A stretch of 64,000 bases of DNA from Micavibrio sp. UBA2400 (lineage in GTDB: Bacteria > Pseudomonadota > Alphaproteobacteria > UBA2400): contig DDSC01000004.1 of the NCBI GenBank assembly GCA_002343265.1, forward strand, positions 1,898 to 65,897, in the 5' to 3' direction. The notes under the pieces are model-generated. The model was not told where the DNA came from. It worked only from the letters and a program-made list of their open reading frames with translations, and made no database searches. Positions 6,555 through 38,395 of this stretch are shown in pieces. Position 1 is the stretch's first letter; every line of letters begins with the position of its first letter. The position numbers were made by a program, and so were the translations under genes.

Positions 6555-8029
6555 TCAGGCTAAAGCGTGCTTGATCTGCCCATGCAGGCCGGTACTGTCC
6601 GCAGCGACACTTTCCGCCGAAGATTTGATGGCTTGCAGATTATTCTCGATATCCCGCACGGCGGTGGCGGTCAGCTGCATGTTGGAGGAAATTTCATTGG
6701 TCACCGCCGTCTGTTCCTCCACGGCCCCGGCCACTCCGGTCACGCTCTGCTCGACGCCTGTGACGGCCCCGCGGATCGAGTTCAGGGCGCGCACAACGTC
6801 CGTCGAGATAGTCTGCATGGATTCAATCTCTTTGCCGATTTTTTCAGTGGCCTGCGCGACCTGACTGGCCAGATTTTTTACTTCGCTGGCCACCACCGCA
6901 ATCCCTTACCCGCCTCACCCGCACGGGCTGATTCGATGGTCGCATTGAGCGCGAGCAGATTGATGTTGCTGGCGATATCCTGAATAAACTCAATAATACT
7001 GGTCATCGAGCGGGCGCCCTCGGCCAGTTTACCTGTATTCTTGTCAGCCAGTTCAACCTCGCGCACGACATCGCCCACCGCCGATTTGGTACGGGCAACA
7101 CTGCTGGAGATTTCCTGGATCGAGCTGCTCAACTCTTCAGCGGCGCTGGCCACGGTCTGCACGCTGGCTGCCGTTTGCGTGGCAGCCGTTGCCGCCATAG
7201 CGGTCTGCTGCGTGACGCCGCCCAATGCTCCGACCATAGACGAAAACTTCTGGTCGACGACAGCACCGATCTGCCGCTTCTGTACCTGCTCGGTTATATC
7301 GGTGGCGTACTTCACGACCTTGGTCAGGCGACCACTAGGATCATAGATCGGGTTGTAGGAGGCCTGAATCCAGATTTCCTTGCCGCCTTTGCCAAGACGG
7401 CGAAACACTCCAGCCTGATATTTGCCCGCGCGCAGCTCATCCCAGAGCTGGCGATACTCGGGGGTTTTGACATAGTCAGGGTCACAGAACATACGATGGT
7501 GCTGACCCACGACTTCTGACGCGCTATAGCCCAGCGTTGCCAGAAAATTTTCGTTCGCCTTGATGACGGTGCCATCGGGTTTGAATTCGATGACGGCCTG
7601 CGACTTGCTGATCGCCGCGAGCTGACCTTCATAATCCGCATTGCGCAGTTTGGCCTCAGTAATATCGGTGGCAAATTTGACCACCTTGTAGACACGCCCA
7701 CGCTTGTCGAACAGAGGGTTGTAGGATGCCTGAATCCAGATTTCCCTGCCGCCCTTGCCAAACCGCTTGTACTCGGCGGCCTGAAAGCGACCCGACTTCA
7801 GATTATCCCAAAGCTGCTGATACGCAGGGCCCCGCGCCTCCTCGGGATCAACAAACATGCGGTGATGCTGCCCCTTGATCTCGGCCAAGCTATAACCGAC
7901 GGCCTTACAAAAATTTTCATTGGCATCAAGTATCACACCATCGGGCGTGAATTCGATAACGGCCTGTGATTTGGATAGAGCCTCAACCTTGGCTTTATCA
8001 TCTTTTTGACGCGCGAAGAGCGAGAACAT
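6555..8029 (-). pseudogene. Methyl-accepting chemotaxis protein with tandem PAS domains and no TM region (soluble chemoreceptor). Interrupted by a -1 frameshift at about 6900.
   Basis: ORF 6878-8029 encodes two PAS repeats (..QAVIEF.PDG.I..ANENF....GYS..E..GQHHRMF.DP) and the start of the MCP signalling domain, ending ...ARAGEAGKG. ORF 6555-6896 continues ..AVVASEVKNLA.. in another frame. The junction reads gggatt-gcg where MCP consensus G-F-A requires gggatttgcg. Confidence 0.7.
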
Positions 8030-19683: not shown

Positions 19684-19878
19684 TTAATGCCCGTGGCTGC
19701 CCGCGCCCGCCTTGAGCTGATAGCGGCGGTCGCAATAAGTACAATCGACAAAACCCTCCGCCCCGATGGTGAGGTACACACGCGGATGGCCCAGCCCGGC
19801 CTTGCCGCCGTCACAGGCGATACGGCGCTCTGAGACTTCATACACTTCCGGGGCAGCGCGATTAAGGGCGTTTGTCAT
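19684..19878 (-). CDS. Zinc-finger (zf-CHCC-like) domain protein
   Basis: ..RIACDGG.....HPRVYL......VDCTYCDRRY is a CHCC zinc-ribbon common in alphaproteobacteria. Confidence 0.55.
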   Translation of the reverse strand: MTNALNRAAPEVYEVSERRIACDGGKAGLGHPRVYLTIGAEGFVDCTYCDRRYQLKAGAGSHGH

Positions 19879-19902: not shown

Positions 19903-20742
19903 CTAACGGGCAAGCCGGGGTTGGCGGTTGTGTGAGCGGGCGAGCATTTCGGTCGGCTCAACAATTAGTGTTACACGCGCCTGCTCGGCTGTCAGCACAT
20001 CCGGCTCGCTGTGAGCGCGCGGTGTTTCTGTGGCCCACCCCTTCCACAACAGAACTCGCCCGACGGGTGCCTGACGCACCAAATGCTCAAACCCTGCTGT
20101 TGGGGAGCCAAACGAATTTCTCCCGTTGATGCTCCGCACACCGTCCATACGGGCGCGGGCCGGCATAGGGCTGGTAAGGACGCGGTCATCCATAATCCAT
20201 GTCGATAGCGCCTCTTTCGTGGGTAAAGTAATGAGTGCGCGATGCTCGGTGTCCGTGTCGGCATGAGTAGTTCCGCATGCCCCACGCGGGCCAACGATAG
20301 TTGTGAAACACAAATCACCCGAGCAGCCCGCGCGCCCCCTATGGGCGTCAGACAGTAGCCCGAACATGTGTGAGAGCTCGCTATATACCAGCCCCGCAGC
20401 GGAAGTCGGCGGGATGAGCCAGGCAAGCAAATTTTTTGCGGCCTCATAAAAATCGTTTTGTTTTACTCTATGTTCGCTCCTAACGACGAAGCGGCTGGTA
20501 TCACCATGCGCATAAGGCTCCGACGCATCCATAACGTTGAGATCACGCAGGACACGCTGCGCAGCGGGTGAAAACCCAAAATCGCTCACCACCATGTTCG
20601 TCTGTGCATCCCAAATCTGCTCAAGCGGACCAAAGCGCACACCCGGCAACGGGGAGTTGGTGAGATTTTCAAAACGCGTTTGAATCAGCACGTCGGTAGA
20701 CATGCCCCACGATATCAAATCCAGCTTGGTTAATTCAACCAC
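19903..20742 (-). CDS. Hypothetical protein (279 aa) with lower GC
   Basis: Long ORF co-oriented with its neighbours. A possible H-x-D ... H metal-binding pattern (YAHGDTS ... LSDAH) is only suggestive. No family recognised. Confidence 0.4.
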   Translation of the reverse strand: MVELTKLDLISWGMSTDVLIQTRFENLTNSPLPGVRFGPLEQIWDAQTNMVVSDFGFSPAAQRVLRDLNVMDASEPYAHGDTSRFVVRSEHRVKQNDFYEAAKNLLAWLIPPTSAAGLVYSELSHMFGLLSDAHRGRAGCSGDLCFTTIVGPRGACGTTHADTDTEHRALITLPTKEALSTWIMDDRVLTSPMPARARMDGVRSINGRNSFGSPTAGFEHLVRQAPVGRVLLWKGWATETPRAHSEPDVLTAEQARVTLIVEPTEMLARSHNRQPRLAR

Positions 20743-20766
20743 GATCAGGGTTAACGCGGACGCGCG

Positions 20767-21468
20767 TTAACCTTCCTGTGCCTTTTCATCCAGCGCATAG
20801 CCCGCCGCGCGGACCGTGCGGATCAGGTCCGGCTCGCCAAGGTTTTTGCGCAGGCGGCGGATATGCACATCTACCGTGCGGGCTTCGACATAAATATCGT
20901 TACCCCACACCTGATCGAGCAGCTGTTCGCGGCTATACACGCGGGTGGGATTTTGCAGGAAGTGGCGCAGCAAGCGGAACTCGGTGGGGCCAAGATCTAG
21001 CTCACGTCCGGCGCGGGTGGCCTTGTGCGTGACCAAGTCCATATGAATATCGGCGTAGCTGATTTCATCCTTTTGCGGGCCGGTGTCGGCACGGCGCAGC
21101 ACGGCATTGATACGCGCCACCAGTTCGGCGGGTGAGAACGGCTTGGTGACATAGTCATCGGCCCCGGCATTGAGGCCGCGCACTTTATCTGGCTCCTCGC
21201 CACGCGCGGTGAGCATAATGACCGGGGTTTTGCTCAGCAGGTTGCTCTTGCGCAGGTCGCGGCACAGCTCCAGTCCGGTCCGGTCAGGTAGCATCCAGTC
21301 GAGCAGGATGAGATCCGGGCGCTCGCGCTCGGCTTTGGCCTGCCCGGCAGCGGCATCATCGGCGCTGATGACGCGAAAACCGTTTTTCTCAAGATTATAG
21401 GTCACCAGAGTGACGATATCGGCCTCATCCTCAACAATCAGGATCAGGGGTTTAGCGGCTGGGGGCAT
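20767..21468 (-). CDS. phoB: OmpR-family response regulator, PhoB-like
   Basis: REC domain (DD, D at LLDWMLPD, K) plus a winged-helix trans_reg_C domain. Overlaps the upstream kinase gene. Confidence 0.85.
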   Translation of the reverse strand: MPPAAKPLILIVEDEADIVTLVTYNLEKNGFRVISADDAAAGQAKAERERPDLILLDWMLPDRTGLELCRDLRKSNLLSKTPVIMLTARGEEPDKVRGLNAGADDYVTKPFSPAELVARINAVLRRADTGPQKDEISYADIHMDLVTHKATRAGRELDLGPTEFRLLRHFLQNPTRVYSREQLLDQVWGNDIYVEARTVDVHIRRLRKNLGEPDLIRTVRAAGYALDEKAQEG

Positions 21469-22513
21469 GAGTCACCTCTTCGTCTGGGATGGGCAAGATT
21501 ACCTCAAAGCGGCTACCGTGGCCAAGCTCGCTTTCAATCTGCAATTGGCCACGGTGGCGATTGATGATGTGTTTGACGATTGACAGGCCCAGCCCGGTAC
21601 CGCCCATATGGCGGGAGCGACCAGCATCGATCCGGTAAAACCGCTCCGTCAGGCGCGGGATGTGCTCGCGCGCAATGCCAGGGCCGTGGTCGCGGATCGA
21701 CAGGCAAATCTGCCCCTGCTCCTGCGTGAGGGTGATCTCGATCGGCGTATTCTCGTGTGTATACTTGATGGCGTTTTCGATGAGATTTTGACACACCTGC
21801 ATGATCTGGTCAGGATCGCCACGCAGTGTGGGCACATGCGCAGGCGCACTCAGCTGGAGCACCACCTTACGACTGGTGGCACGGTGCTGGAGCTGCTCCA
21901 CGGCCTGCTTGACCGTCAACAGAAGGTCAACGGTACCTGTGGGGGCAACATGCTCATTAAACTCAATACGAGCCAGACTTAACAAATCCTGTACCAGACG
22001 GGTCATGCGGCTGGCCTGGGCGTGCATGATCTCAAGAAACCGCTCCCGCGCCTCGGCATCATCTTTCGCCGGACCTTGCAGGGTTTCGATAAAGCCGAGC
22101 AGACTGGCGAGCGGTGTACGCAGCTCATGACTAGCATTGGCCAGAAACTCGACTCCCAGTTGCTCCGAGCGGCGCAGGGTAGTGATATCATGCAAGGTCA
22201 CCAGCGCCCGCGGCGAACCTGGCCGCGCGGAAAAATATAGGGGCTGAACGTTTACATTATAGGTATGATCGATATTATCCGGCAGCACCAGTTCCACCGA
22301 CTGCGGAGTTTCACCACGCAGGGCCGCATCAACAGAATTAAGGATTTGGGGCGAGCTGATGACAGAACTCATTTTGGCCCCCGCAACATCCCCCAGGACG
22401 CGCCGCGCTGAACTGTTCTGCCGCAGAACGGTACCCACCGCGTCGAGCAGCAGCAGCGGGTCGCTGAAAGCATCGAAGATAGCGCGAATAGTGGAGAGAT
22501 CGGCGCGGTTCAT
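21452..22513 (-). CDS. phoR: Cytoplasmic PAS-domain sensor histidine kinase, PhoR-like
   Basis: PAS domain, H-box FLANASHELRTPL, then N/G1/G2 boxes (QNLIENAIKYT, IRDHGPGI, GGTGLGLSIV). No TM segment. Confidence 0.8.
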   Translation of the reverse strand: MNRADLSTIRAIFDAFSDPLLLLDAVGTVLRQNSSARRVLGDVAGAKMSSVISSPQILNSVDAALRGETPQSVELVLPDNIDHTYNVNVQPLYFSARPGSPRALVTLHDITTLRRSEQLGVEFLANASHELRTPLASLLGFIETLQGPAKDDAEARERFLEIMHAQASRMTRLVQDLLSLARIEFNEHVAPTGTVDLLLTVKQAVEQLQHRATSRKVVLQLSAPAHVPTLRGDPDQIMQVCQNLIENAIKYTHENTPIEITLTQEQGQICLSIRDHGPGIAREHIPRLTERFYRIDAGRSRHMGGTGLGLSIVKHIINRHRGQLQIESELGHGSRFEVILPIPDEEVTHAPSR

Positions 22514-22540
22514 GCGGGCCAGCTTACAGGAACACGCGCT

Positions 22541-23314
22541 CTAGAAGTAGCGGAAATCATCAGCCTGACCCGCCGCGGCGCGGGCATCGGTCCGCGTTCC
22601 GTTCAGGATGGCGACGGCACGAGGGTCCAGTGAGCGGAATACCACGGCATTTCCAGTCAGCGCTGGAACCGCGCGGGGGCAGTCAAGTCGCGCGAGATAA
22701 TGCATCACCTCCAGCAGGTCGTGACTGGTGTGTACGCCCCCCACCGCTAACGGGTGTTCGTGCAGTCGCTCCAGCAGCCCCTGGGTCGTCAATGAAATTT
22801 CTTCAGCCAGTTCGCGCGCGGCCTCGTTCGAGCGCATCACGCGGCGGCCATCAAATGCACAACCTGATTCCGGCGTGGCATAAGCATTGAAGACATCGGC
22901 CGCCTTCTCCCGACTGTGTAGGCTTCCCCCCGGCAGAAAGACCAGACTCTCCTGACTGGGGCTGATGGCAACATATGGGTTACTGCGAACATCCAGCCCC
23001 TGCTGAGCCAAGACCCGGTGGGACTGCTGCGCCGCGCCTTCAATAGTCCGATCATACTGGAGTGTCGTGGCAGGCGGCCACCCCACCCGCAGCACCTCAC
23101 CATACAATGTACTGATGCCCGGCCGTAGCGTTGCCATAACGGCGCGGGGTGGCGCGCTCGAATTCAGCCGCTCACGGGCGGGATAGAAGACGATGCGCCC
23201 TAGCCCGGCCGCTACTCCTGCAGAGCCGATATGACGAAAAGCCTCAAGCAGAAAGCGATAGGGTAAAATGTAAGCACTGTGGACAACTGACATTATATAA
23301 TCCTGAAATTTCAT
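22541..23314 (-). CDS. Hypothetical protein (257 aa)
   Basis: Long ORF co-oriented with phoR. His-rich segment HEHPLAVGGVHTSHDLLEVMH. No family recognised. Confidence 0.4.
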   Translation of the reverse strand: MKFQDYIMSVVHSAYILPYRFLLEAFRHIGSAGVAAGLGRIVFYPARERLNSSAPPRAVMATLRPGISTLYGEVLRVGWPPATTLQYDRTIEGAAQQSHRVLAQQGLDVRSNPYVAISPSQESLVFLPGGSLHSREKAADVFNAYATPESGCAFDGRRVMRSNEAARELAEEISLTTQGLLERLHEHPLAVGGVHTSHDLLEVMHYLARLDCPRAVPALTGNAVVFRSLDPRAVAILNGTRTDARAAAGQADDFRYF

Positions 23315-23424
23315 AGCGGGAATGCGGCCGATATAAGCAGATCAGACCCCGCCATTGCAACCGAAATCAGGTTAGGCGAAGTTTGGCCTATTTTTACAGG
23401 CATTCCTATGGTTAAGACGCCCTC

Positions 23425-24201
23425 TTATGCGGGGGCCAGTCCACCCACGGGGCGGCCGGGAACACCGCTCGGGGGTTCGGGCAGCGGCGTGGGCGGAAAA
23501 ACCGCACCCCACTGGAGGCATTCACACTCATCCTCTTCACCCGCGCCGGGGTCCTGATGACGAACCAGCTGTGCAGCCCGATAGATAACAAGGTCGGCTG
23601 ATTGCGGGTTCGTCCGGCACAAGTGCGTGAACTGTTCAGCCAGACGATCGCGCTGGCCAAGCTTGGTTTCCAGAGTCTGGATATCCTCGGCCAGAAACTC
23701 GGCCAGCGGGAACGGCTCCCCATCATCCGCGCTATCAGCTTCCCACTCACGTATATCGGATGCATAGTGTGCTCGCGCTGGCTGACTATTGCCGTGCGCG
23801 AGCTGGGTTTGCAACGTCTGCAACAACTCTAGGCGTGCTGCCTTGGGCGCAAAGCGCTGATCCAGCAGGGCCTGTTGATTAAAAATGGTGACTTTCTCCT
23901 GACGCACCAGCAGCCCCTCACTCGCCAATGACTCAAGACGGGTTCGAACCTCGGATTCACTCAAGACAGGTGGGAAGTGTGAGAAACGCGAGCCTTCATC
24001 CATGAGTGGCAAGGCCAGTCGGGTCAGCCATGAGCAGGCCTGACGCTGCTGGCGGGCAAATTCCGTACTCACCTCATGCACCTCGCGGGCAGTTAGCCAT
24101 GGCGGGTAGAACCCCAACACCGTCCACAGGTGATGTTCGACCAGATTATTACGCAGGCTCATCAGCAATTCTCCTGGCGGGCACTTTAGCGCCCCCCACA
24201 C
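23425..24201 (-). CDS. Hypothetical protein (about 245-258 aa) with a possible winged-helix segment
   Basis: Long ORF. An alternative start MSLRNN lies at 24162. LSESEVRTRLESLASEGLLVRQEKV resembles a wHTH. Acidic C-terminal half. Confidence 0.4.
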   Translation of the reverse strand: MWGALKCPPGELLMSLRNNLVEHHLWTVLGFYPPWLTAREVHEVSTEFARQQRQACSWLTRLALPLMDEGSRFSHFPPVLSESEVRTRLESLASEGLLVRQEKVTIFNQQALLDQRFAPKAARLELLQTLQTQLAHGNSQPARAHYASDIREWEADSADDGEPFPLAEFLAEDIQTLETKLGQRDRLAEQFTHLCRTNPQSADLVIYRAAQLVRHQDPGAGEEDECECLQWGAVFPPTPLPEPPSGVPGRPVGGLAPA

Positions 24202-24268
24202 CGCTCCGGCAAGAAAAACCCCTCCCGGACAGCCCGGAAGGGGTCGACTCTATAATGAATTCAGAGGC

Positions 24269-26560
24269 TTACCACTGCGCTGCGTCATGCGCGGCCAGTG
24301 CGGCCACCGTGACCAGATCAGAGACCCCGGCATCCATCGGTGCAATCTGCACCGGTTTACCCAGACCGATCATGAGCGGGCCAATCACGGTGCCGCCCAT
24401 CTTCTGCAGCAGTTTGCTGCCGATATTAGCCGCATGCAGAGCTGGCATCACCAACACATTGGCCGGGCCGGACAGACGGCAGAACGGATAGTGCTTTTTC
24501 ATCAGCTCATAATCGAGGGCGACATCAGCCGACATCTCGCCATCATACTCAAAGTCCACCGGGCGACGGTCGAGCAACGCGACGGCCTCACGAATGCGCT
24601 TGGCCTTTTCGCGCATCGGCTGGCCGAAGTTGCTGAAGGAGAGCAGCGCCACGCGCGGCTCGTGCCCGAGCTGGCGGGCCTTGGCCGCGGCCTTCAGGGT
24701 AATTTCGACCAGCACCTCAGGATCCGGCAGTTCATGCACGGCGGTATCGGCGATAAACACCGTGCGTCCGCGCATAACCGCAATGGACAGGCCAAACGGC
24801 ACCGTGTTCTCCTCATAGGGAATGATCCGCGTGACTTCCTCAAGCGAGCGCGAAAAGGAGCGCGTCACACCCGTGACCATACCGTCGGCATCGCCCATCT
24901 CGACCATCAGCGAGGCGAAGGTGTTGCGGTCATTGTTCACCAGCCGCTCACAATCGCGATACAGAAAGCCCTTGCGCTGCAGACGGCGGTACATGGCGTC
25001 AGTATAGCGCTTGTTGTGTACCGACAGGCGGGCGTTATGGACTTCAAGGCCGTGGTCCTCCGGTAGACCCGCTGCCTTCACCACCGCCGCGACCCGATCT
25101 TCACGACCGATCAGCACCGGATCGCCATACCCGGCCTGACGGTAGGCCAGCGCAGCGCGAATAACACGCTCTTCCTCGCCTTCGGCGAAGACGATACGCT
25201 TTTTCTTGGCACGAACGCGCTCGAAAATCAGCTGCAAGCTGTCGGCGGTCGGGTCAAGACGCGCGCGCAGCTCATGCTTGTACGCCGTCATGTCGGTGAT
25301 GGGGCGGCGCGCCACGCCGCTATCCATCGCTGCTTTGGCCACCGCAAGCGGAATGGTGGTGATCAGACGCGGGTCAAACGGCACCGGCACAATATACTCC
25401 GGCCCAAACCGCAGGCGACGGCCCGCATAAGCCCGATCAACCTCATCGGGCACATCCTGCCGAGCGAGATCAGCCAGCGCTTGAGCCGCTGCAATCTTCA
25501 TCGCATCATTAATGGTACTGGCGCGCACATCCAGCGCACCGCGGAAGATATAGGGAAAGCCCAACACATTGTTGATCTGGTTGGCATAGTCGGAACGGCC
25601 AGTGGCCACAATGGCGTCACCGCGCACCGCCTTCACCTCCTCCGGTGTAATTTCGGGATCGGGGTTAGCCATGGCCATAATGATGGGCTTGGGACCCATG
25701 GCCGCTACCATCTCGGGCGTCACCGCGCCTTTAGCCGAGAGGCCGCAGAAAATATCCGCCCCCTTCATAGCCTCTTTCAGGGTGCGCAGATCGGTCTTAA
25801 TCGCATGAGCGGATTTCCACTGATTCATGCCCTCGGTGCGGCCCTGATAGACCACGCCCTTGGTATCGCACAGGATGACATTATCATGCGGCAGCCCCAT
25901 GGCCTTGAACAGCTCGACACAGGCAATCGCCGCAGCCCCCGCACCATTAACCACCATCTTGGCAGTTTTGATATCGCGGCCGGTAACATGCAGCGCATTA
26001 ATCAACCCGGCGGCGGCAACAATCGCCGTGCCATGCTGATCATCATGAAACACCGGAATATCCATCAACTCCTTGAGGCGATCCTCGATGATGAAGCACT
26101 CCGGCGCCTTGATATCCTCAAGGTTGATGCCGCCAAAGCTGGGGCCAAGGAACTTCACACAATTCACAAATTCATCAACGTCTTTGGTGTCGACCTCAAG
26201 GTCGATCGAATCCACATCGGCAAAGCGCTTGAACAGCACCGCCTTGCCTTCCATCACCGGCTTGCCGGCCAGCGCACCCAAATCGCCCAAGCCCAGAACG
26301 GCAGTCCCATTGGAGATAACCGCGACGAGATTACCCTTGGCGGTATAGTCATAGGCGGTGCTGGGATCCTCGGCGATCTTGAGGCAGGGTGCGGCCACGC
26401 CGGGCGAGTAGGCGAGCGACAGATCGCGCTGGGTGGCCATTGGCTTGGTCGGCACCACCTCCAGCTTACCGGGGCGACCCATGCTGTGTAGTGTCAGCGC
26501 ATCGGCGTCGGTCACCTTGCGTTCATTCTCAGGGGCGTGGGGGCCAAGTTCTTCGGACAT
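24269..26560 (-). CDS. maeB: NADP-dependent malic enzyme (malic enzyme fused to a phosphotransacetylase-like domain)
   Basis: Malic enzyme motifs (..YSPGVA.., GAGAA) plus a C-terminal PTA-like domain. Length 763 aa is typical for MaeB. Confidence 0.95.
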
Positions 26561-30518: not shown

Positions 30519-31709
30519 TTAGCGCGGTAACAACCGCCGCACCGTCACAGGCGCGAGCTGTGCTAGACGCCGTACAGTGGGTGGGAGGCCTGCCAATTGA
30601 GTGGCGGAAAAACGGGTCCTCGCCGATTTGCCGCTCGTAGGTGGCAACGCCCCGCCTTCCGCACTACGTCCTACACTGGCATCGGCCTCTATGATCGCCC
30701 GGACACTAGCCGCTGTGAGTTCGCCATGGCCAACCGCCAGCGGGTCCGGCTCGCTCAGGTCCAGATCCAGCTCGGTCTGCCGGTCATCGACCGCGCCAGC
30801 GATCATTAAGTCATCCAGCCACTGCCAGCTGGCATCAAGACCAAACAATTTGTGCCGCCCAGCCAGAAGCATGCCAGCATAATGCGCGGGCTTAGCCGGG
30901 ATGCGGCGGCGCCCCAGTGCATCAATCGCCCCTTCGATTGCGGCATCGTCATAGCCGCGCGCATCCTGCAAGGTCAACAAACGCTCGCGGGTAACCTGAT
31001 CGCTATGCACGTCGATCGGATTAAGCTGCGTTAGGCTGTGCCAGACATCGTTCATGTCCGGACTTGGATAGTGATCGCGCACGGCCACGGCTGGCCAGCG
31101 AAAATTGCCAATCTTACGCGCCGGGATAAACTCACCACCGCTAAGCATATAATCAAGCAACAGCTCTTTGGCCCCCGGCGCGACCGGCCACGGCGCTGGG
31201 TTAGCTTTATGGCTGGCCAGATGCCTGAACCACGCGGTGGCCGGCTTGCGAACTGGCGTCTTGAGTGCAATCAGGGTTGAGTTGCTCGGGAAGTATCTGA
31301 CGTGGGGCCGCAGATTCGTGCGCTGAGACAGCAACAAAAAGACATCAACCGGAGGATGCCGGGGCGACCTGACTCGCATGGCACTGGCGAGAGATCCAAG
31401 ATACTGGGCCGGATTGTTATAAAAAGGCGCGGTGCGCAGAGGCTGGCGAATTTGCCGGTTCATGCCCAGCATACGCCCATCGAGTACCATCACAATCAGG
31501 CTCCGGCCCGCGGCCGGGTGCGCGATTTCGCTGAACATCTCCTTCACATCATCCGGTTCGGGCGCGGCCAAGCCATCCCCCACCTGCCACACCATGCTGG
31601 TTTCAGGGCCGCTGAAGGCTTGGCTAAGATCCCGCAGGTCATAGCCAGGCTGGGTGTTGGTGCCCTCGCCCCAAAGAATGCCAACCGACTGAACCGGGCG
31701 TGTTTCCAT
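30519..31709 (-). CDS. Hypothetical protein, paralog A of a tandem pair (396 aa)
   Basis: Shares with paralog B: V(G/A)I(L/I)WGEGT(N/S).Q, L(I/L)V.(V/I).DG, SLASA....PPVDVFLL(L/V) and colinear W-rich blocks. No family recognised. Confidence 0.6.
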   Translation of the reverse strand: METRPVQSVGILWGEGTNTQPGYDLRDLSQAFSGPETSMVWQVGDGLAAPEPDDVKEMFSEIAHPAAGRSLIVMVLDGRMLGMNRQIRQPLRTAPFYNNPAQYLGSLASAMRVRSPRHPPVDVFLLLSQRTNLRPHVRYFPSNSTLIALKTPVRKPATAWFRHLASHKANPAPWPVAPGAKELLLDYMLSGGEFIPARKIGNFRWPAVAVRDHYPSPDMNDVWHSLTQLNPIDVHSDQVTRERLLTLQDARGYDDAAIEGAIDALGRRRIPAKPAHYAGMLLAGRHKLFGLDASWQWLDDLMIAGAVDDRQTELDLDLSEPDPLAVGHGELTAASVRAIIEADASVGRSAEGGALPPTSGKSARTRFSATQLAGLPPTVRRLAQLAPVTVRRLLPR

Positions 31710-31715
31710 GACTAA

Positions 31716-32876
31716 CTATCCTTTTTGTAAACGACGGCGGGTGGAGGCAGGCAGGGCGTGTGCAAAGGGCTGTAATCTTTTTGGTAAAGCGGTGATCTCT
31801 GCGCCAGTCAGGCGGCGCACGGGCGCGCGCTGAGCCGGTGGGCGGGGTTGTTCCGTAACAGTGGCTACTACGACTCGTTCGATTGGCGGCGCACTCGCCT
31901 GAACCACCGGAACGGAGGTCACCACCCCAACGTCAACCGGATTATCGTTGGCGGCGACGAGAGTAAACATATTGCGCAGACGACTGGCAGTTTCATGACG
32001 ATCAAAACATTCGGCGGCGAGGGCGAGATAGAGCCGTTCCTTGATCTCAACTCGTTCATGACTCAAAACCGGCCGGCCGACGATGGGGTAGCGGGCAGCC
32101 AGATAGTTAAGTCGCCCGCGGTTGGCGTGGCGCTGCGACCATCCGTGCAGAGAGATGGTATCGACCAGTTGGCGCTGGCTGGCATACTCATGCCACAGCT
32201 CATTAAGGTGAATACGCTTGCAGCCCGACACCGCAATGTCGGGTACACCCCAATAGCCCCGTTTGCCCGAGGCCATCAGGTCGATCAGCAGATCTTTTGC
32301 GGCGGGCGGCGTAGCCCAGTGCATGGCCCGGTTGCCCGCGGCATCAAGCCCATAGACACTGCTGTGCACCCAGCTATCGGTTACAGTGTTGGGGCGCATG
32401 CGTACCGCCACCACAGTAGAGCCGCGCGGTAACTGGCGGGCGAGAGCATGAATAAAATCGGTTTTACGGGCCACCAGCAGAAAAACATCGACCGGTGGGC
32501 TGGCTTTGGGCAGCGCTGACGCCAATGAACGCAAGAGCCATGGCGCGTCCCGTCCGCTATGCCACAGATGAGCGGGCTGCACTTTATCGCGGCGCCAGCC
32601 ATCCATGATTCCCACCAACAGGCGGCGGTTGAAGGCGGCAGCCGTAAAGTCTTTCAACAGCTGCTGCACGTCCCTAGCCGCGGGTACAGAATCGCCATCA
32701 CCGCACACCCGCAAGGGTGTATTGGGATTGCCGCTAAACGCCGTATAAGATGCGCCGTAGGAAACGGGCAGTTGATGCTGATTGGACGTGCCCTCACCCC
32801 AGATGACGGCAACGGAATCAATCTCTTGAGAAACAACCTGCGCAGGCATGGCAGGCAACCTAGCGGCGCTCGCCAC
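31716..32876 (-). CDS. Hypothetical protein, paralog B of a tandem pair (386 aa)
   Basis: See paralog A. The pair is colinear and co-oriented, 6 nt apart, with a divergent Pro/Arg-rich C-terminal tail. Confidence 0.6.
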   Translation of the reverse strand: MASAARLPAMPAQVVSQEIDSVAVIWGEGTSNQHQLPVSYGASYTAFSGNPNTPLRVCGDGDSVPAARDVQQLLKDFTAAAFNRRLLVGIMDGWRRDKVQPAHLWHSGRDAPWLLRSLASALPKASPPVDVFLLVARKTDFIHALARQLPRGSTVVAVRMRPNTVTDSWVHSSVYGLDAAGNRAMHWATPPAAKDLLIDLMASGKRGYWGVPDIAVSGCKRIHLNELWHEYASQRQLVDTISLHGWSQRHANRGRLNYLAARYPIVGRPVLSHERVEIKERLYLALAAECFDRHETASRLRNMFTLVAANDNPVDVGVVTSVPVVQASAPPIERVVVATVTEQPRPPAQRAPVRRLTGAEITALPKRLQPFAHALPASTRRRLQKG

Positions 32877-34391: not shown

Positions 34392-34630
34392 GATGATGTC
34401 CAGTGTAGAAAATCAGATATCAGGTAACAAATCAGGACCAAAGCGGGTACGCTGAACCCCGCCGCCCACCAGCGCGTGGCGGGGTGGCACAACCCGCCGA
34501 TAAGTGTCAGGCACAAAGCCAGACCCAGCGCAGCATAACTGCGCAGTTCGGGCAGATAAAAATGCGCCCCTACTAATCCTGCGCCCCATAGCGCCAACAG
34601 GCCGAAAAAGATCAGCCGGGCGCAGCTCAT
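34388..34630 (-). CDS. Hypothetical small membrane protein (80 aa, 2-3 TM)
   Basis: Hydrophobic ORF whose stop overlaps the glpK start (ATGA). Could be a shadow ORF. Confidence 0.3.
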   Translation of the reverse strand: MSCARLIFFGLLALWGAGLVGAHFYLPELRSYAALGLALCLTLIGGLCHPATRWWAAGFSVPALVLICYLISDFLHWTSS

Positions 34631-36138
34631 TGAAAGGCCGGCTCCTGAAAACTGCGCAGTTTACGTGAATGAATGCGCTCGAGCGTCTGTTCGGCCAGAA
34701 GATCCAGCGCCAGCATGCCAATGCGCAGATGCTGGTTCACCTGCTGGCGATAGAAGTTCTGCGCCATGCCGGGCAACTTCAGCTCGCCATGCATCGGCTT
34801 ATCCGACACGCACAGCAAGGTGCCATAGGGCACCCGGAAGCGATAACCGTTGGCGGCGATGGTCGCGCTTTCCATATCCAGCGCAATGGCGCGGCTCTGA
34901 CTGAAGCGCTCGAACATCTGGGCGGTGTCGCGCAACTCCCAGTTGCGATCATCAATGGTAGCCACTGTGCCGGTGCGCATTACACTCTTGAGCGCGTACC
35001 CGGACAGCCCGGTAACACGACTAACCGCCTGCTCAAGGGCCACCTGCACTTCGGCCAGTGCCGGGATGGGTACGCTGATGGGGAGGTCGTGATCAAGCAC
35101 ATGGTCCTCACGCACATAAGCGTGCGCCAGTACATAATCGCCCAACCGCTGGGTACTGCGCAGACCCGCACAATGCCCGAGCATGAGCCACGCGTGCGGA
35201 CGCAGCACCGCCACATGGTCGGTGATGGTTTTGGCGTTACTCGGCCCCACGCCGATGTTGATGATGGTAATGCCGATATGCCCCGGCCGCTTGAGGTGGT
35301 AGGCGGGCATCTGCGGCATGCGATCCGGTGCCTTGCCCGAGCTGGGGCCAGCCGGGCCGCCAAAATTCTGGTTCATCGTCAGCACATCGCCGGGCTCGAC
35401 AAAGGCCTCGTATTTCTGGCGGGCTGTGCGCTCGGCGAGGTCGGTGGCCTCGATCATCTGCTCCTGCCCATAGCGGATAAACTCGTCGATATAAAACCCG
35501 TAGTTGGTAAACAGAATGAAGTTCTGGAAATGCTCCGGGCCGGTGCCGGTATAGTGGCGCAGGCGATGCAACGAATAATCCACTCGCGGCGCGGTAAAGG
35601 GCGCCAGCGGCAACGGCTCGCCCGGCGTGGGACGGTAGGTGCCATTGACGATACTGTCATCCATGAAGTTGAGATCCGGCAGATCAAAATGCTCGCGGAT
35701 GGCCGTGACACGGCCGGGGTCAAGCTCGGATTCCAGATGCATGCCGCTGGTGAAAGCAAAATGCAACGGGATAGGGGTGTCGGACACACCCACTTCGAGC
35801 GGTTCGCCGTGATTGCGGATGAGCTGGCGGAACTGTTCGAGATAATAGGCAGCAAAAATATCCGGCCGGGTAAGTGTGCTCATATACACACCCGGCGCGG
35901 GCACAAAGCCATAGGCCAAGCGCGTATCGCCCCGGCTGGTGCTGGTGGTGGTGAGCTTGATGTAGGGATAACAGGCGCGCACCTTACCCTTAATCCGCTC
36001 GCCCTTGGTGAAAGCCAGAAACCGCTCGCGCAGATAGCCGGTATTAGCCTCATAGATTTCGCGCACGCGGGTCACGGCGTCTTCCGGCTGGGTGAAACTG
36101 CGCGGGGCAAATTTGGGGGTGGGGTCGAATATCATCAC
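34627..36138 (-). CDS. amn: AMP nucleosidase
   Basis: Conserved blocks LHRLRHYTGT, NIGVGPSNAKTITDH.AVLRP..WLMLGHC.GLR and GTLLCVSDKP.HGE.KLPG match E. coli Amn. Confidence 0.9.
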   Translation of the reverse strand: MMIFDPTPKFAPRSFTQPEDAVTRVREIYEANTGYLRERFLAFTKGERIKGKVRACYPYIKLTTTSTSRGDTRLAYGFVPAPGVYMSTLTRPDIFAAYYLEQFRQLIRNHGEPLEVGVSDTPIPLHFAFTSGMHLESELDPGRVTAIREHFDLPDLNFMDDSIVNGTYRPTPGEPLPLAPFTAPRVDYSLHRLRHYTGTGPEHFQNFILFTNYGFYIDEFIRYGQEQMIEATDLAERTARQKYEAFVEPGDVLTMNQNFGGPAGPSSGKAPDRMPQMPAYHLKRPGHIGITIINIGVGPSNAKTITDHVAVLRPHAWLMLGHCAGLRSTQRLGDYVLAHAYVREDHVLDHDLPISVPIPALAEVQVALEQAVSRVTGLSGYALKSVMRTGTVATIDDRNWELRDTAQMFERFSQSRAIALDMESATIAANGYRFRVPYGTLLCVSDKPMHGELKLPGMAQNFYRQQVNQHLRIGMLALDLLAEQTLERIHSRKLRSFQEPAFQ

Positions 36139-37086
36139 TTATCCTTCTACTCCCATCAGGGCGCGGGCATATTCGCGTGGATCAAACGGCTTGAGATCGT
36201 CAATCGTTTCGCCCACGCCCACCGCCACAATAGGCAATTTATACTGTTCGGCCAGCCCAACCACCACCCCGCCACGGGCCGAGCCATCGAGCTTGGTGAC
36301 GATCAGGCCATCCACCGCCACCATCTCACGAAACGCCTTGACCTGACTATGGGCATTCTGCCCGCCGGTGGCGTCGAGCACCAACAGCGTGGCATGCGGC
36401 GCACTGGCATCAATTTTTTGCAACACCCGCTTGATCTTGGCCAACTCGTCCATCAGACCTTGTTTATTCTGCAGCCGTCCGGCGGTATCAATCAGCAGCA
36501 GATCAGCCCCCTGCGCCTTGGCATGTTCGAGTGCCTTATAGGCCAGCGCAGCCGCATCTGATCCCTCGGGGGCTGTGAACACCGGGCAACCCGCCCGCTC
36601 GCCCCACACCCTGAGCTGCGCCACCGCGGCGGCGCGAAAGGTATCACCCGCCGCCAGCACCACTTTTTTACCCTGATCGGCCCAGCCCGCCGCCATTTTA
36701 CCGAGCGTTGTAGTTTTACCCGCGCCATTGACGCCCACCAGCAATACCACAAACGGCTGTTTGCTCTCGTCAACCACCAACGGTCTGGCAGCAGGTTGCA
36801 AGAGCTGCTCAATCTGGCCAGCCAGAGCGTCTTTCACTTCACTGTCGGTGACATCTTTGCCAAAGCGGTTTTCGGCAAAGTCAGCCACCAGCTTGGCCGC
36901 TGTCGCCGGACCAAGATCGGCGGCAATCAGGATGTCTTCCAGCTCATCCAGCGCCGCTTGGTCAAGTTTGCGATGGGTGAAGAGCTGGGTAATGTTTTGC
37001 GTGAGCGCCGACGTGCTCTTACTGAGGCCCTGCTTGAGCCGCTGCCACCAGCTGGTTGTTTCGGTTATCTCGGTCATCCTACCCAC
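36139..37086 (-). CDS. ftsY: Signal recognition particle receptor FtsY
   Basis: SRP-GTPase NG domain with LLVGVNGAGKTTT, DTAGR and TKLDG. Short N-terminal acidic region. Confidence 0.9.
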   Translation of the reverse strand: MGRMTEITETTSWWQRLKQGLSKSTSALTQNITQLFTHRKLDQAALDELEDILIAADLGPATAAKLVADFAENRFGKDVTDSEVKDALAGQIEQLLQPAARPLVVDESKQPFVVLLVGVNGAGKTTTLGKMAAGWADQGKKVVLAAGDTFRAAAVAQLRVWGERAGCPVFTAPEGSDAAALAYKALEHAKAQGADLLLIDTAGRLQNKQGLMDELAKIKRVLQKIDASAPHATLLVLDATGGQNAHSQVKAFREMVAVDGLIVTKLDGSARGGVVVGLAEQYKLPIVAVGVGETIDDLKPFDPREYARALMGVEG

Positions 37087-37889
37087 TCGCCCCGGAATGT
37101 TTCAACCCACGCCCCGGTCATCCAGACGGAATCATCGGCCTTCCATTCTATCTGCAAGCTGCCACCTTCAAGCTGAACTGTCGCGTTGCGAGCCGACAGG
37201 CCGCGTCGTGCTGCTGCCACCAGCGCCGCGCACGCACCGCTACCACAGGCCAGCGTAATGCCTGCCCCGCGCTCCCACACCCGCATGCGCAGGGTGTGGC
37301 GATCAATCACCTGCACAATTTCAACGTTGGTGCGCTCGGGAAACAGCGGGTGATGTTCCAGCCGGGGGCCGAGATGGATCAGATCAATCGAGGCTGTATC
37401 CTCAACAAAAAACACACAGTGCGGATTACCCATATTCACCGCAACCGGATCGACCAGCGGACCAAGCTCCAGCGGCAGATGAAGCGTGTCCTGCTCATCC
37501 ACCAGCGGAATTTCACTCCATTTCACACGGGGCTTACCCATGTTGACCCCCACCGCATTGCCCGCGGCCAAGGCGGGCAGAATACCGCTGATGGTTTCGA
37601 TCACTGCCGCGCTCTTGCCACTTTCGCGCATCAGGGTGGCGGCGACACAGCGGGTGGCATTACCACACGCGCCGGCCTCGCTGCCATCGGGATTATAAAT
37701 CGCCATAAACGCATCGGCCTTGCTGTGGCGCGGCGGCTCAATCACGATGATCTGGTCACAGCCGATGCCAAAGCGGCGGTCCGCCAGACGCTCCAGCTGT
37801 GAGCGCGAGAGCTGCACCGGACGCACACGACCATCAATCACGACAAAGTCGTTGCCAAGGCCATGCATTTTGCGAAAGGGCAATGTCAT
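37074..37889 (-). CDS. dapF: Diaminopimelate epimerase
   Basis: KMHGLGNDFVVID N-terminal motif and paired catalytic Cys regions (..GNATRC.. and ..CGSGA..). Overlaps the ftsY start. Confidence 0.9.
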   Translation of the reverse strand: MTLPFRKMHGLGNDFVVIDGRVRPVQLSRSQLERLADRRFGIGCDQIIVIEPPRHSKADAFMAIYNPDGSEAGACGNATRCVAATLMRESGKSAAVIETISGILPALAAGNAVGVNMGKPRVKWSEIPLVDEQDTLHLPLELGPLVDPVAVNMGNPHCVFFVEDTASIDLIHLGPRLEHHPLFPERTNVEIVQVIDRHTLRMRVWERGAGITLACGSGACAALVAAARRGLSARNATVQLEGGSLQIEWKADDSVWMTGAWVETFRGEWVG

Positions 37890-37984
37890 AACTCTATATA
37901 AGCCATGGCAAAACAAATTGTCAAAAAACTGTCACATGACTCTCCACCAAGGTCCATTTAGCCTGCGTGCAGGAGGACCTACAC

Positions 37985-38395
37985 ATGAGTATTTTACTTG
38001 AAGCCGCGGGTGACGCCGCTATCTGGAGCTCGGGCCGTGGCACTTTGGCTGTCGTTTTCGGCTTGCTGGCCGCCGCTGCAGCTTTTAATAACCCGCTGTG
38101 GAAAGAGCCGGAAACGGCCAAAATTGCGGCCACAGCTGCGCAGATTACGGTTAAAGATGCCAGCGCATGCGCTTGGTTTGGCTGCATGGATGTGAACGCA
38201 TTCAGTCTTTACCAGACCAAGGTCAGAGGCGTGGACAGCACCGGTCGTGAGGTTGAGGTCACCATTTGCCGAACAGCATTCTCCAGTGACAACCAGGTTA
38301 TTCAGCGCAAGAAAGTCACTGATCAGGGTATGAAAAAGCACGAACGCAGCGTCACTCATGTGCGTGTCGTCAACGGTACGGCAGTCCTAAACTAA
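37985..38395 (+). CDS. Hypothetical protein (137 aa)
   Basis: ATG follows a strong SD (aggagg). N-terminal hydrophobic segment. No family recognised. Confidence 0.45.
   Translation: MSILLEAAGDAAIWSSGRGTLAVVFGLLAAAAAFNNPLWKEPETAKIAATAAQITVKDASACAWFGCMDVNAFSLYQTKVRGVDSTGREVEVTICRTAFSSDNQVIQRKKVTDQGMKKHERSVTHVRVVNGTAVLN

Follow-up and report, generated by a model that had tools for sequence, protein, structure and literature searches.

The locus considered here lies in a 64-kb window (the whole stretch of DNA that was analysed) from a Micavibrio-like organism of bioreactor sludge. Seven co-oriented ORFs are present on its minus strand, and their existence, positions and strand are as the initial annotation described them. 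In transcription order, and with two further features, the block reads as follows.

24269 to 26560, minus strand: maeB, first in transcription order; NADP-malic enzyme with a PTA domain (Pfam malic, Malic_M, PTA_PTB)
24217 to 24245, minus strand: maeB intrinsic terminator; 13-bp stem with 8 GC pairs, then TTTTCTT (terminator scan and sequence)
23425 to 24162, minus strand: hyp258, second; orphan ORF of 245 aa from ATG 24162, acidic (pI 5.1) with a Pro-rich tail; open frame 24201 to 23425
22541 to 23293, minus strand: hyp257, third; near-orphan ORF of 250 aa from ATG 23293, 27 nt 5' of phoR; open frame 23314 to 22541
21452 to 22513, minus strand: phoR, fourth; soluble PAS-HisKA-HATPase histidine kinase of 353 aa
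20767 to 21468, minus strand: phoB, fifth; OmpR-family response regulator of 233 aa, overlapping the phoR stop by 17 nt
20749 to 20772, no strand: perfect 10-bp palindrome, GGTTAACGCG N4 CGCGTTAACC, overlapping the phoB stop codon
19903 to 20703, minus strand: hyp279, sixth; DUF1826-related protein with a predicted Fe(II)/2-oxoglutarate dioxygenase fold, 266 aa from a conserved ATG; open frame 20742 to 19903
19684 to 19878, minus strand: zf-CHCC, last; small zinc-finger protein of 64 aa (PF10276 annotation on the identical contig L004)

For the three hypothetical proteins the open frame extends beyond the start that we consider likely. The frame of hyp279 reaches up to GTG 20742, and its likely start is ATG 20703, the conserved M14 of the family. 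That of hyp258 reaches GTG 24201, with a likely start at ATG 24162 (AGGAG 8 nt upstream), and hyp257 likely starts at the internal ATG 23293.

From hyp257 to zf-CHCC the gaps are, in order, 27, -17, 24-63 and 24 nt. Spacing this tight makes it likely that hyp257-phoR-phoB-hyp279-zfCHCC are co-transcribed. The maeB terminator stands between maeB and hyp258. A sigma-70-like TTGCAA-N17/18-TTATAT lies 5' of hyp257; it was spotted by eye only and the promoter scan did not call it. The palindrome at the phoB stop is the sole such one in the window, where none is expected by chance; it folds as RNA with -20.1 kcal/mol (z -2.75), and no T-tract follows it.

The PhoR/PhoB pair beside maeB

The initial annotation considered the "Pho" label to be a matter of motif only. 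By its sequence, however, the regulator is a genuine PhoB. It scores 318.0 bits against the TIGR02154 equivalog model (cutoff 296.2), with residues 8-227 aligned to model positions 4-226 of 226, and it contains the Pfam domains Response_reg (3.7e-31) and Trans_reg_C (1.2e-26), i.e., a receiver and an OmpR-type winged-helix DNA-binding domain. Its identity to the other PhoBs of the Micavibrio-like clade (the window and six other loci) is 75-78%. PhoR is a near miss to TIGR02966 (phoR_proteo), with 321.4 bits, 13 bits short of the cutoff of 334.2, in an alignment that spans model positions 4-332 of 333. Pfam finds HisKA (2.7e-19), HATPase_c (8.3e-32) and weak PAS_8 and PAS_4 matches at residues 9-115. 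No hydrophobic segment is found in PhoR (the maximum Kyte-Doolittle 19-residue mean is 1.43), and Pfam and Kyte-Doolittle thus agree with the earlier description of a cytoplasmic PAS-HisKA-HATPase kinase without a transmembrane segment. The N-terminal membrane anchor is missing, and the ORF opens just 27 nt before the start, which leaves no room for an extension.

Identity of the window PhoR to its clade counterparts is 64-66%. With the other alphaproteobacterial PhoRs fetched, maeB-linked or not, it shares 42-52% identity and the PAS-HisKA-HATPase core. Most of the fetched non-clade PhoRs have an N-terminal extension of 80-180 aa that the window PhoR lacks; those of L001, L009 and L100 in the clade lack it as well, and the called gene of L094 adds 34 residues. 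An anchor-less PhoR like that of the window is also found in Paracoccaceae/Salipiger and some Rhodospirillales MAGs (L031, L033, L038, L046, L083, L085, L087), where the protein starts at the PAS domain or within about 30 residues of it and therefore has no transmembrane anchor. In these genomes phoB lies 5.7-8.4 kb downstream, the distance expected for a pst/phoU cluster (judged by spacing only), whereas in the window it follows directly. Since an anchor-less PhoR exists elsewhere with the phoR-phoB spacing intact, the missing anchor alone is not unusual.

We use maeB as a positional anchor for the orthology of phoR. The gene immediately 5' of phoR is maeB both in the clade loci L001, L009, L094 and L100 and in 13 alphaproteobacterial loci outside the clade. 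In the 13 non-clade loci phoB, where visible in the fetched locus, is about 5-7 kb downstream. The interval in L010 (Oleisolibacter albus) holds PBP_like_2 (pstS), two BPD_transp_1 (pstC, pstA), ABC_tran (pstB) and PhoU; this content was Pfam-checked in that one relative and judged by spacing in the others (Kiloniellaceae, Pelagibius and other Rhodospirillales-type genomes). The window locus resembles this canonical alphaproteobacterial pho locus in the maeB flank, in the order and orientation of phoR and phoB, and in the PhoB equivalog match. It differs in that pstSCAB-phoU is missing. As the initial annotation had noted for the vicinity of the pair, no pst or phoU gene is found in the parts of the 64-kb window that were covered, namely the called genes at 12.5-33.3 kb, the ORFs at 36.5-43.6 kb and ten long ORFs elsewhere. 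A phoR-phoB pair without intervening pst/phoU is seen in the Micavibrio-like clade only: the two genes are adjacent in the window, L001, L009, L094 and L100, overlapping by 17 nt in the window and standing 24 nt apart in L001 and 39 nt in L009.

With maeB adjacent and phoB downstream on the same strand, PhoR is the positional orthologue of the canonical PhoR. The label is thus carried by more than motif: PhoB clears a curated equivalog cutoff, and the pair holds the canonical phoR...phoB position beside maeB. Presumably PhoR still passes a phosphoryl group to PhoB, with Pho boxes elsewhere as the targets. A search for Pho boxes upstream of the block had been suggested, and our pattern scan finds none in the block and none in five clade loci, unlike L010 and L047, the controls, in which the same pattern recovers an exact site before pstS. 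One exact core (TGTCA-N6-TGTCA) is present at 37919-37934, in a divergent intergenic region 14 kb from the block.

The three hypothetical proteins

The initial annotation recognised no family for hyp279, hyp257 or hyp258, and direct scans of Pfam, NCBIfam, PHROGs and PADLOC leave all three without a match (for hyp279, Pfam also at E <= 1). For hyp279 a connection is obtained through its family. The family profile ties P0008, P0012 and P0007 to hyp279 (E 1e-15 to 1e-49; for P0008, 1.6e-33). P0008 in turn matches DUF1826 (PF08856) over its full length with 32.3 bits, against a gathering cutoff of 22; weak matches, also over the full length, come from P0012 (17.3 bits) and P0007 (12.9 bits). As hyp279 itself has no match to the Pfam model, its putative membership of DUF1826 rests on transitive homology. 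The hyp279 family proteins exceed the 202-position DUF1826 model in length by about 60-80 residues.

The predicted model of hyp279 has the double-stranded beta-helix (jelly-roll) fold of the Fe(II)/2-oxoglutarate-dependent oxygenase superfamily, and the sequence contains the motif of its 2-His-1-carboxylate facial triad (H-x-D/E ... H). The metal-site-like H-x-D...H pattern suspected by the initial annotation proves real: H160, D162 and H244 are invariant in 14 family sequences that share just 18-40% identity with hyp279. Invariant in the same 14 sequences is R256, 12 residues past H244, where the last strand (E256-263) begins, and it may serve as the basic residue binding the C5-carboxylate of 2-oxoglutarate. 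A Foldseek search with the model returns as best PDB matches 2rg4 and 3bvc, uncharacterised Rhodobacterales proteins, which we take to be DUF1826 structures. Compared with Fe(II)/2-oxoglutarate dioxygenases (GA2ox3, 6ku3; HIF prolyl hydroxylase, 6f0w; P. putida P4H, 4iw3; KanJ, 7cl2), hyp279 has an identity of 8-14% and TM-scores of 0.3-0.45, and no sequence-level match to any solved structure is found. By its predicted fold and intact H-x-D...H...R site, hyp279 most likely acts as an Fe(II)/2-oxoglutarate-dependent oxygenase.

Within the clade, and only there, phoR-phoB-hyp279-zfCHCC forms a conserved set. The hyp279 family lies between phoB and zf-CHCC in all six clade loci with both sides visible. 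Copies of zf-CHCC, 71-76% identical, follow a hyp279 homologue in L001, L009, L089, L094, L096 and L100 (in L096, a short contig that begins inside the gene, the homologue is directly 5' of zf-CHCC). Family members outside the clade are found beside TetR, beside an SLT gene near a ribosomal-protein cluster, and in plasmid- or mobile-like neighbourhoods. DUF1826 (PF08856) has been reported in Zur-regulated clusters beside COG0523 zinc chaperones (PMC2770081, PMC5786701), whereas hyp279 has phoB and zf-CHCC as neighbours and neither COG0523 nor Zur. On our reading, hyp279 is a real, vertically inherited gene that encodes a divergent DUF1826-type protein. As it is the sole hypothetical conserved with the pair, a functional link between hyp279 and PhoRB is possible.

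The two ORFs between maeB and phoR are of another kind. Among 5.8 billion protein clusters hyp257 and hyp258 each match only themselves. The features first described are seen in the sequences: hyp257 has its His-rich segment, and hyp258 an acidic half and a Pro-rich tail. No transmembrane segment is found in hyp257. The winged-helix-like stretch ascribed to hyp258 is not borne out, with no wHTH profile match (Pfam at E <= 1, NCBIfam at E <= 0.1) and no meaningful PDB match, the single one being at chance level (E 0.035). Plasmids and viral contigs likewise give no match to hyp258, and it is absent from all related loci. For hyp257 one relative is found: over its N-terminal approximately 75 aa it resembles the ORF of 219 aa that occupies the corresponding slot in L001 (Smith-Waterman score 60, z 4.8, 0/500 shuffles), and the two are reciprocal best matches, though weak. 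The slot is otherwise variable, being empty in L094, holding a 105-aa ORF and an EamA transporter in L009 and L100, and holding other ORFs in L001. The conservation of a six-gene arrangement, which had been proposed as a check, is therefore not observed, and neither hyp257 nor hyp258 is a conserved partner of PhoR/PhoB.

In a codon model trained on the window's own genes, all three hypothetical ORFs score best in their own frame. The preference is +0.136 per codon for hyp257 and +0.113 for hyp258, where accepted genes have 0.12-0.22 and phoR 0.113. On the sequence evidence hyp257 (one weak relative) and hyp258 (none) are probably expressed proteins and species-level novelties.

Origin of the arrangement

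We consider it probable that this is a canonical alphaproteobacterial pho locus that has been remodelled in the lineage and holds lineage-specific filler genes. The ancestral layout would have been maeB, a membrane-anchored phoR, pstS-pstC-pstA-pstB-phoU and phoB. In the lineage of the clade pst/phoU would have gone from the locus and PhoR would have lost its N-terminal anchor, leaving a soluble PAS-HisKA-HATPase kinase followed directly by PhoB. The junctions maeB/phoR and phoB/zf-CHCC would then be variable slots, made by the remodelling, for fast-evolving, lineage-restricted genes, with hyp279 filling the phoB/zf-CHCC slot and hyp257 and hyp258 the maeB/phoR slot. Several observations stand as counterpoints to remodelling. 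The constant place of the DUF1826-like gene by phoB in six clade loci could reflect function beyond inheritance, the absence of pst/phoU is a result for parts of the 64-kb window, PhoR falls below the TIGR02966 cutoff, and the GC3 and GC2 of hyp257/hyp258 deviate from those of their neighbours.

The initial annotation suggested instead a self-contained regulatory or accessory module. A related reading, a horizontally acquired island with its own two-component system, is exceedingly improbable. The GC of hyp279 (0.569) is slightly lower than the window mean of 0.596 and its absolute codon-model scores are below those of its neighbours; distant members of its family also occur in the plasmid- or mobile-like contexts mentioned above. 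Yet the "visibly lower" GC first ascribed to hyp279, correct as to direction, is marginal and inside the range of accepted window genes (0.563-0.647), and the GC profile of the whole block is within the window's range, with no clear composition anomaly. No integrase, transposase or tRNA is present among the block's ORFs and called genes, no flanking direct repeats are found around it, and plasmid and viral collections give no matches. PhoR and PhoB are positional orthologues between conserved housekeeping flanks; in L009 and L100 these are kept with maeB on one side and zf-CHCC, HAD, methyltransferase, ABC and methylmalonyl-CoA mutase on the other. These results do not support a self-contained module either, and hyp257 and hyp258 are not conserved in relatives. 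A functional reading without an island, which we rate as unlikely, takes hyp257-phoR-phoB-hyp279-zfCHCC as one transcription unit. The DUF1826-type oxygenase, with or without the zinc-finger protein, would be an output or accessory of PhoRB (e.g., a phosphate-starvation-induced oxygenase, or a protein hydroxylase modulating signalling), and the upstream orphan a new input to a PhoR bereft of its Pst/PhoU partners. It is consistent with the very short or negative intergenic distances, with the only terminator being the one that follows maeB, and with the hyp279 family directly 3' of phoB in six clade loci with phoB visible. A tandem duplicate of the family in L100, a divergent copy 5' of phoR in L001 (HMM E 1.4e-5), and the invariance of the predicted catalytic residues at an overall identity as low as 22-40% also point this way. 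However, extra small ORFs, one of them on the opposite strand, lie between phoB and the oxygenase gene in L001, L094 and L100, the gene directly 5' of phoR is not conserved (absent, EamA transporter, or a different ORF), and the contexts of the non-clade family members are unrelated. The lack of a Pho box also speaks against it, and expression of the genes beyond phoB could be decoupled by the perfect hairpin at its stop.

That hyp257 and/or hyp258 are non-functional, i.e., chance or decaying frames in inserted or non-coding DNA between maeB and phoR, we regard as unlikely. The absence of homologues, the empty slot of L094, a GC3 that is lower (0.63) and a GC2 that is higher than in neighbouring genes, and the 100% identity of all recovered copies would fit such frames, and one open frame of 245 codons or more occurs in 7.4% of random sequences of the slot's length and composition. 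Two such frames in the 1,755-nt slot, however, occur in just 10 of 5,000 Markov simulations, and here they are non-overlapping and on the same strand as the flanks. The own-frame preferences are at or just under the low end of accepted genes and not below that of phoR, while overlapping alternative frames are strongly negative in the codon model. Shine-Dalgarno-like motifs stand at the correct spacing before the internal ATGs, and the similarity of the hyp257 N-terminus to the L001 ORF is significant. A bolder proposal, which we hold to be decidedly improbable, is that in Micavibrio-like epibiotic predators the Pho system has been uncoupled from Pst/PhoU and rewired, so that the soluble PhoR would respond to a cue from the cytoplasm or from prey and the DUF1826-type oxygenase, with its invariant site and its constant place after phoB and beside the zinc-finger gene, would be a dedicated output or modifier (e.g., a protein or metabolite hydroxylase). 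If true, this would be the first functional context for DUF1826 outside zinc regulons.

Under the remodelling that we favour, the main value of the analysis is one of clarification. What appeared to be an unexplained regulatory module would be an ordinary PhoR/PhoB locus after the loss of pst/phoU, with an evolutionary hot-spot for young genes on either side. The orphans hyp257 and hyp258 could have arisen de novo or be evolving very fast, with nothing seen here to set them apart from the many orphans of MAGs. One of the three "unassignable" proteins, hyp279, gains a predicted fold, a probable active site and a link to DUF1826 and the 2-oxoglutarate oxygenases, which slightly extends a poorly understood family and gives rise to a catalytic hypothesis that can be tested. 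If the whole genome lacks Pst and PhoU, the clade would be a natural experiment in PhoR signalling without its usual partners.

The PhoR/PhoB pair and its probable ancestral arrangement

The minus-strand block contains the phoR and phoB genes and three genes of hypothetical proteins (hyp258, hyp257 and hyp279), which lie in two junctions or "slots", maeB|phoR and phoB|zf-CHCC.

Features of the block, in order of transcription
26560..24269, minus strand: maeB, first in transcription order
24245..24217, minus strand: strong intrinsic terminator after maeB
from 24201, minus strand: open frame of hyp258, probable ATG at 24162, preceded by AGGAG
23293, minus strand: probable ATG of hyp257, 110-130 nt gap from hyp258
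22513..21452, minus strand: phoR, 27-nt gap after hyp257
21468..20767, minus strand: phoB, 17-nt overlap with phoR
20749-20772: perfect 10-bp palindrome, GGTTAACGCG-N4-CGCGTTAACC, overlapping the phoB stop codon
from 20742, minus strand: open frame of hyp279, conserved ATG at 20703
19878..19684, minus strand: zf-CHCC, 24-nt gap after hyp279, convergent with a HAD hydrolase gene

The kinase has the Pfam domains PAS, HisKA and HATPase_c, and the regulator has Response_reg and Trans_reg_C. Against the NCBIfam models, PhoB scores 318 bits on TIGR02154 (cutoff 296.2), and PhoR, with 321 bits on TIGR02966, stays just below the cutoff of 334.2 in an alignment that spans the whole model. A scan for PhoR in 185,579 species genomes provides 80 loci, onto which the window proteins were then mapped. 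Outside the Micavibrio-like clade, phoR is located directly downstream of maeB in 13 alphaproteobacterial loci, with Oleisolibacter, Kiloniellaceae, Pelagibius and several unclassified alphaproteobacterial MAGs among them. In these loci an N-terminal extension of 80-180 residues is usual on PhoR, and phoB is found, where visible, about 5-7 kb downstream of phoR. For Oleisolibacter albus this interval holds pstS, pstC, pstA, pstB and phoU (Pfam), with an exact Pho box, TGTCATCGAACTGTCA, preceding pstS. From the TIGR scores, the maeB adjacency in the 13 loci and the pstSCAB-phoU interval of O. albus, the window pair is the positional orthologue of canonical PhoR/PhoB. The initial annotation, which took the "Pho" label to be by motif alone, was too cautious, given that PhoB is above its model cutoff and the maeB-linked position is that of canonical phoR/phoB.

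The nearest relatives of the window locus are L009, a MAG deposited as "Micavibrio sp." (85% identity to the window maeB, 64% to PhoR and 77% to PhoB), and the metagenome contigs L001, L089, L094, L096 and L100. In this clade phoB follows phoR without intervening genes, and PhoR begins at the PAS domain, the sole exception being L094, where the called gene is 34 residues longer. All the block proteins examined, PhoR included, are free of hydrophobic segments, and the PAS/HisKA/HATPase_c kinase is indeed cytoplasmic, as had been proposed. The pair also stands without pst or phoU company, as first described: none of these genes is found in the examined parts of the 64-kb window. In E. coli, phoBR and pst are likewise not linked. 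Pst and Pho go unmentioned in the published genome paper on M. aeruginosavorus. The anchor-less PhoR is not unique to the clade, because it also occurs in Paracoccaceae, Salipiger and several Rhodospirillales MAGs; in those genomes, however, phoB is 5.7-8.4 kb downstream, the distance to be expected if a pst/phoU cluster lies in between, while in the clade it is adjacent. In both slots, a tblastn search for PhoR anchor remnants, using relatives' ORFs up to 2.5 kb upstream of phoR (queries that cover the PhoR N-terminal extension), returns only noise, all below 26 bits. Micavibrio is placed under Bdellovibrionota in the NCBI taxonomy; the close PhoR and maeB relatives recovered are all alphaproteobacterial.

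Contents of the two slots

The content of the maeB|phoR slot differs among the clade members. The six-gene synteny, whose conservation was to be checked, does not hold: where the window has hyp258 and hyp257, the slot is empty in L094 (the called genes are ~66 nt apart), holds a 105-aa ORF and an EamA transporter in L009 and L100, and holds a 219-aa ORF and a 232-aa ORF in L001. The phoB|zf-CHCC slot is also variable: besides the hyp279 homologue that it always contains, it has additional ORFs of 70-114 aa, of which one is on the opposite strand. A DUF1826-type gene stands in tandem in L100 (5912-6736, 274 aa, and 6736-7587, 283 aa; a 4-nt overlap is reported), and the 232-aa ORF upstream of phoR in L001 (1002-1700) is a very divergent hyp279-family paralogue (HMM E 1.4e-5). 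Together, the tandem duplication and the divergent copy point to local birth and death of the DUF1826-type family around phoRB.

The three hypothetical proteins are nameless in the source annotation and have no match in Pfam, NCBIfam, PHROGs or PADLOC. These scans and the hydrophobicity results therefore bear out the initial description of the sequence, in its Pfam domains, its family-less hypotheticals (by direct scans) and its lack of hydrophobic segments. Sequence searches of the PDB with the single proteins and with family profiles give chance-level matches only (S100-A9, E 0.046; CFAP143, E 0.035). Among 5.8 billion protein clusters, hyp258 and hyp257 each match only themselves; hyp258 is without relatives among plasmids, viral contigs and the loci fetched, and hyp257 has none in the plasmid and viral collections. 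The N-terminal ~75 residues of hyp257 resemble the 219-aa ORF of L001 (Smith-Waterman score 60, z 4.8, 0 of 500 shuffles), and each is the other's best match, albeit a weak one. Both hyp257 and hyp258 are orphans, not conserved partners of PhoRB. We considered them as distant hyp279 paralogues and rejected this (family HMM nil at E <= 1; Smith-Waterman z <= 0). The two genes have in common a 29-nt direct repeat, 24/29 identical (22767-22795 and 23903-23931), which is translated in frame in each (SLTTQGLLER and SLASEGLLVR), at the differing positions of ~residue 174 and ~residue 91; by our own rough estimate it is expected by chance about once per 100 such regions. Otherwise the two are unrelated (Smith-Waterman z -0.9).

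We turn to hyp279, for which a word-indexed search finds one homologue, at 38% identity. The profile of these two sequences yields only 11 proteins in an exhaustive HMMER search of 1.84 billion representatives, and the two-sequence alignment only two short loci in a metagenome scan. In an alignment of 14 sequences, with identities to hyp279 of just 18-40%, H160, D162, H244 and R256 are invariant and G212, W233, G235, E246 and P247 nearly so; the H-x-D...H pattern suspected earlier is thereby upheld. While hyp279 itself does not match the DUF1826 model (PF08856), the family protein P0008 does (32.3 bits; gathering score 22), aligning over positions 5-199 of 202, and P0012 and P0007 give weaker, full-length matches. 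AlphaFold2 reaches a pLDDT of 84.9 and a pTM of 0.85 with 12 sequences (the two plus 10 representatives from the exhaustive search), and a pLDDT of 29 with two. Foldseek places the uncharacterised structures 2rg4 and 3bvc at the top, followed by the Fe(II)/2OG dioxygenase class. In the model, strand 167-172 is directly preceded by H-x-D, the short strand 243-244 contains the distal His, and the last strand, 256-263, begins with the Arg. This placement of H-x-D, distal His and Arg is canonical for iron and 2OG binding. Judging from the invariant residues, the DUF1826 link, the fold matches and the residue placement, we take hyp279 to be a divergent Fe(II)/2OG-dependent oxygenase of DUF1826 type that is probably active. 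The earlier view that none of the three belongs to a recognised family thus stands for hyp257 and hyp258, and falls for hyp279 by way of P0008 and the fold.

In the literature DUF1826 appears only in a zinc context, within clusters that are linked to COG0523 and regulated by Zur (PMC2770081, PMC5786701). Outside the clade, the neighbours of hyp279-family genes include TetR, an SLT gene near a ribosomal-protein cluster, and plasmid- or mobile-like settings. The most distant members, P0012 and P0013, occur in L090 (JGI 3300079084) and L093 (SRR940689) among ParA, CcdA/CcdB, integrase, SSB, resolvase and PIN-toxin genes, a plasmid- or mobile-element-like setting that differs from the chromosomal phoRB setting of the clade.

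Coding status, regulation and readings of the block

A codon model trained on 23 long window ORFs prefers the annotated frames of hyp279 (+0.185 per codon), hyp257 (+0.136) and hyp258 (+0.113), with phoR at 0.113 and alternative overlapping ORFs at -0.2 to -0.3. With leave-one-out, 22 of the 23 training ORFs fall at 0.12-0.22, and the outlier is a shadow ORF. In simulated sequences for the 1,755-nt maeB|phoR slot, two open frames of 245 codons or more turn up in 10 of 5,000 cases, and a single one in 7.4%. On these sequence statistics we conclude that all three genes are coding now or were until recently; hyp279 is certainly coding, because homologues exist.

Elsewhere in the window, the 630-aa plus-strand ORF 34669-36561 is a shadow frame, opposed by 34630-36138 (minus), a 503-codon open frame directly downstream of the FtsY-like gene 36139..37086 and clearly preferred by the codon model (-3.78 vs -4.01 per codon). 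Two adjoining genes without a recorded Pfam match, 31716-32876 (minus, 377/386 aa) and 30519-31709 (minus, 396 aa), are flanked by a glycerol-kinase-like (FGGY) gene and a PHB-depolymerase-like gene.

Pho boxes upstream of the block had been suggested as a check. Searching with the 18-mer consensus (<=3 mismatches) and the TGTCA-N6-TGTCA core (<=2 mismatches), we find none, neither in the block nor in the five clade loci searched; the same pattern recovers the sites before pstS in the control loci L010 (O. albus) and L047. The sole exact core in the 64-kb window, at 37919-37934 (plus), is TGTCAAAAAACTGTCA (18-mer TTGTCAAAAAACTGTCAC). It lies in the 50-nt divergent gap between dapF (37916..37074, minus) and a 142-aa ORF whose N-terminal part has a hydrophobic stretch (37967..38395, plus), and by its sequence is a candidate PhoB target. 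The palindrome at 20749-20772 is unique in the window and has no T-tract after it; its RNA hairpin is calculated at about -20 kcal/mol (z -2.75), and its possible roles are the stabilisation or processing of the transcript, or the binding of a protein.

How is the block to be read? The tight gene spacing suggests that hyp257, phoR, phoB, hyp279 and zf-CHCC could be one transcript, and a TTGCAA-N17/18-TTATAT upstream of hyp257 was seen by eye, without being called by the consensus scan. An operon that joins the oxygenase functionally to PhoRB would fit such a transcript and the constant presence of hyp279 next to phoB; with the family found in other settings and the block free of Pho boxes, we consider it unlikely. 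That the orphan ORFs are non-functional would suit their lack of relatives, and with the codon preferences on the other side we hold this to be quite improbable. An acquired island is scarcely credible: the "visibly lower GC" ascribed to hyp279 (0.569) is inside the range of accepted window genes (0.563-0.647), and a search for flanking direct repeats around the slots gives nothing convincing. GC3 of the three genes (0.60-0.63) is slightly under that of most neighbours (0.66-0.72).

The best-supported reading, which we think fairly probable, is that a canonical pho locus would have been remodelled in the Micavibrio-like clade, both junctions having since been filled by lineage-restricted, fast-evolving genes. 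The conserved one of these junction genes is hyp279, the putative DUF1826-type oxygenase. The self-contained module proposed initially gives way to this remodelled locus, as hyp257 and hyp258 are not conserved with phoRB. The finding is mostly explained in this manner, and what novelty is left concerns the small oxygenase family and the control of a soluble PhoR that is unlinked from Pst/PhoU.
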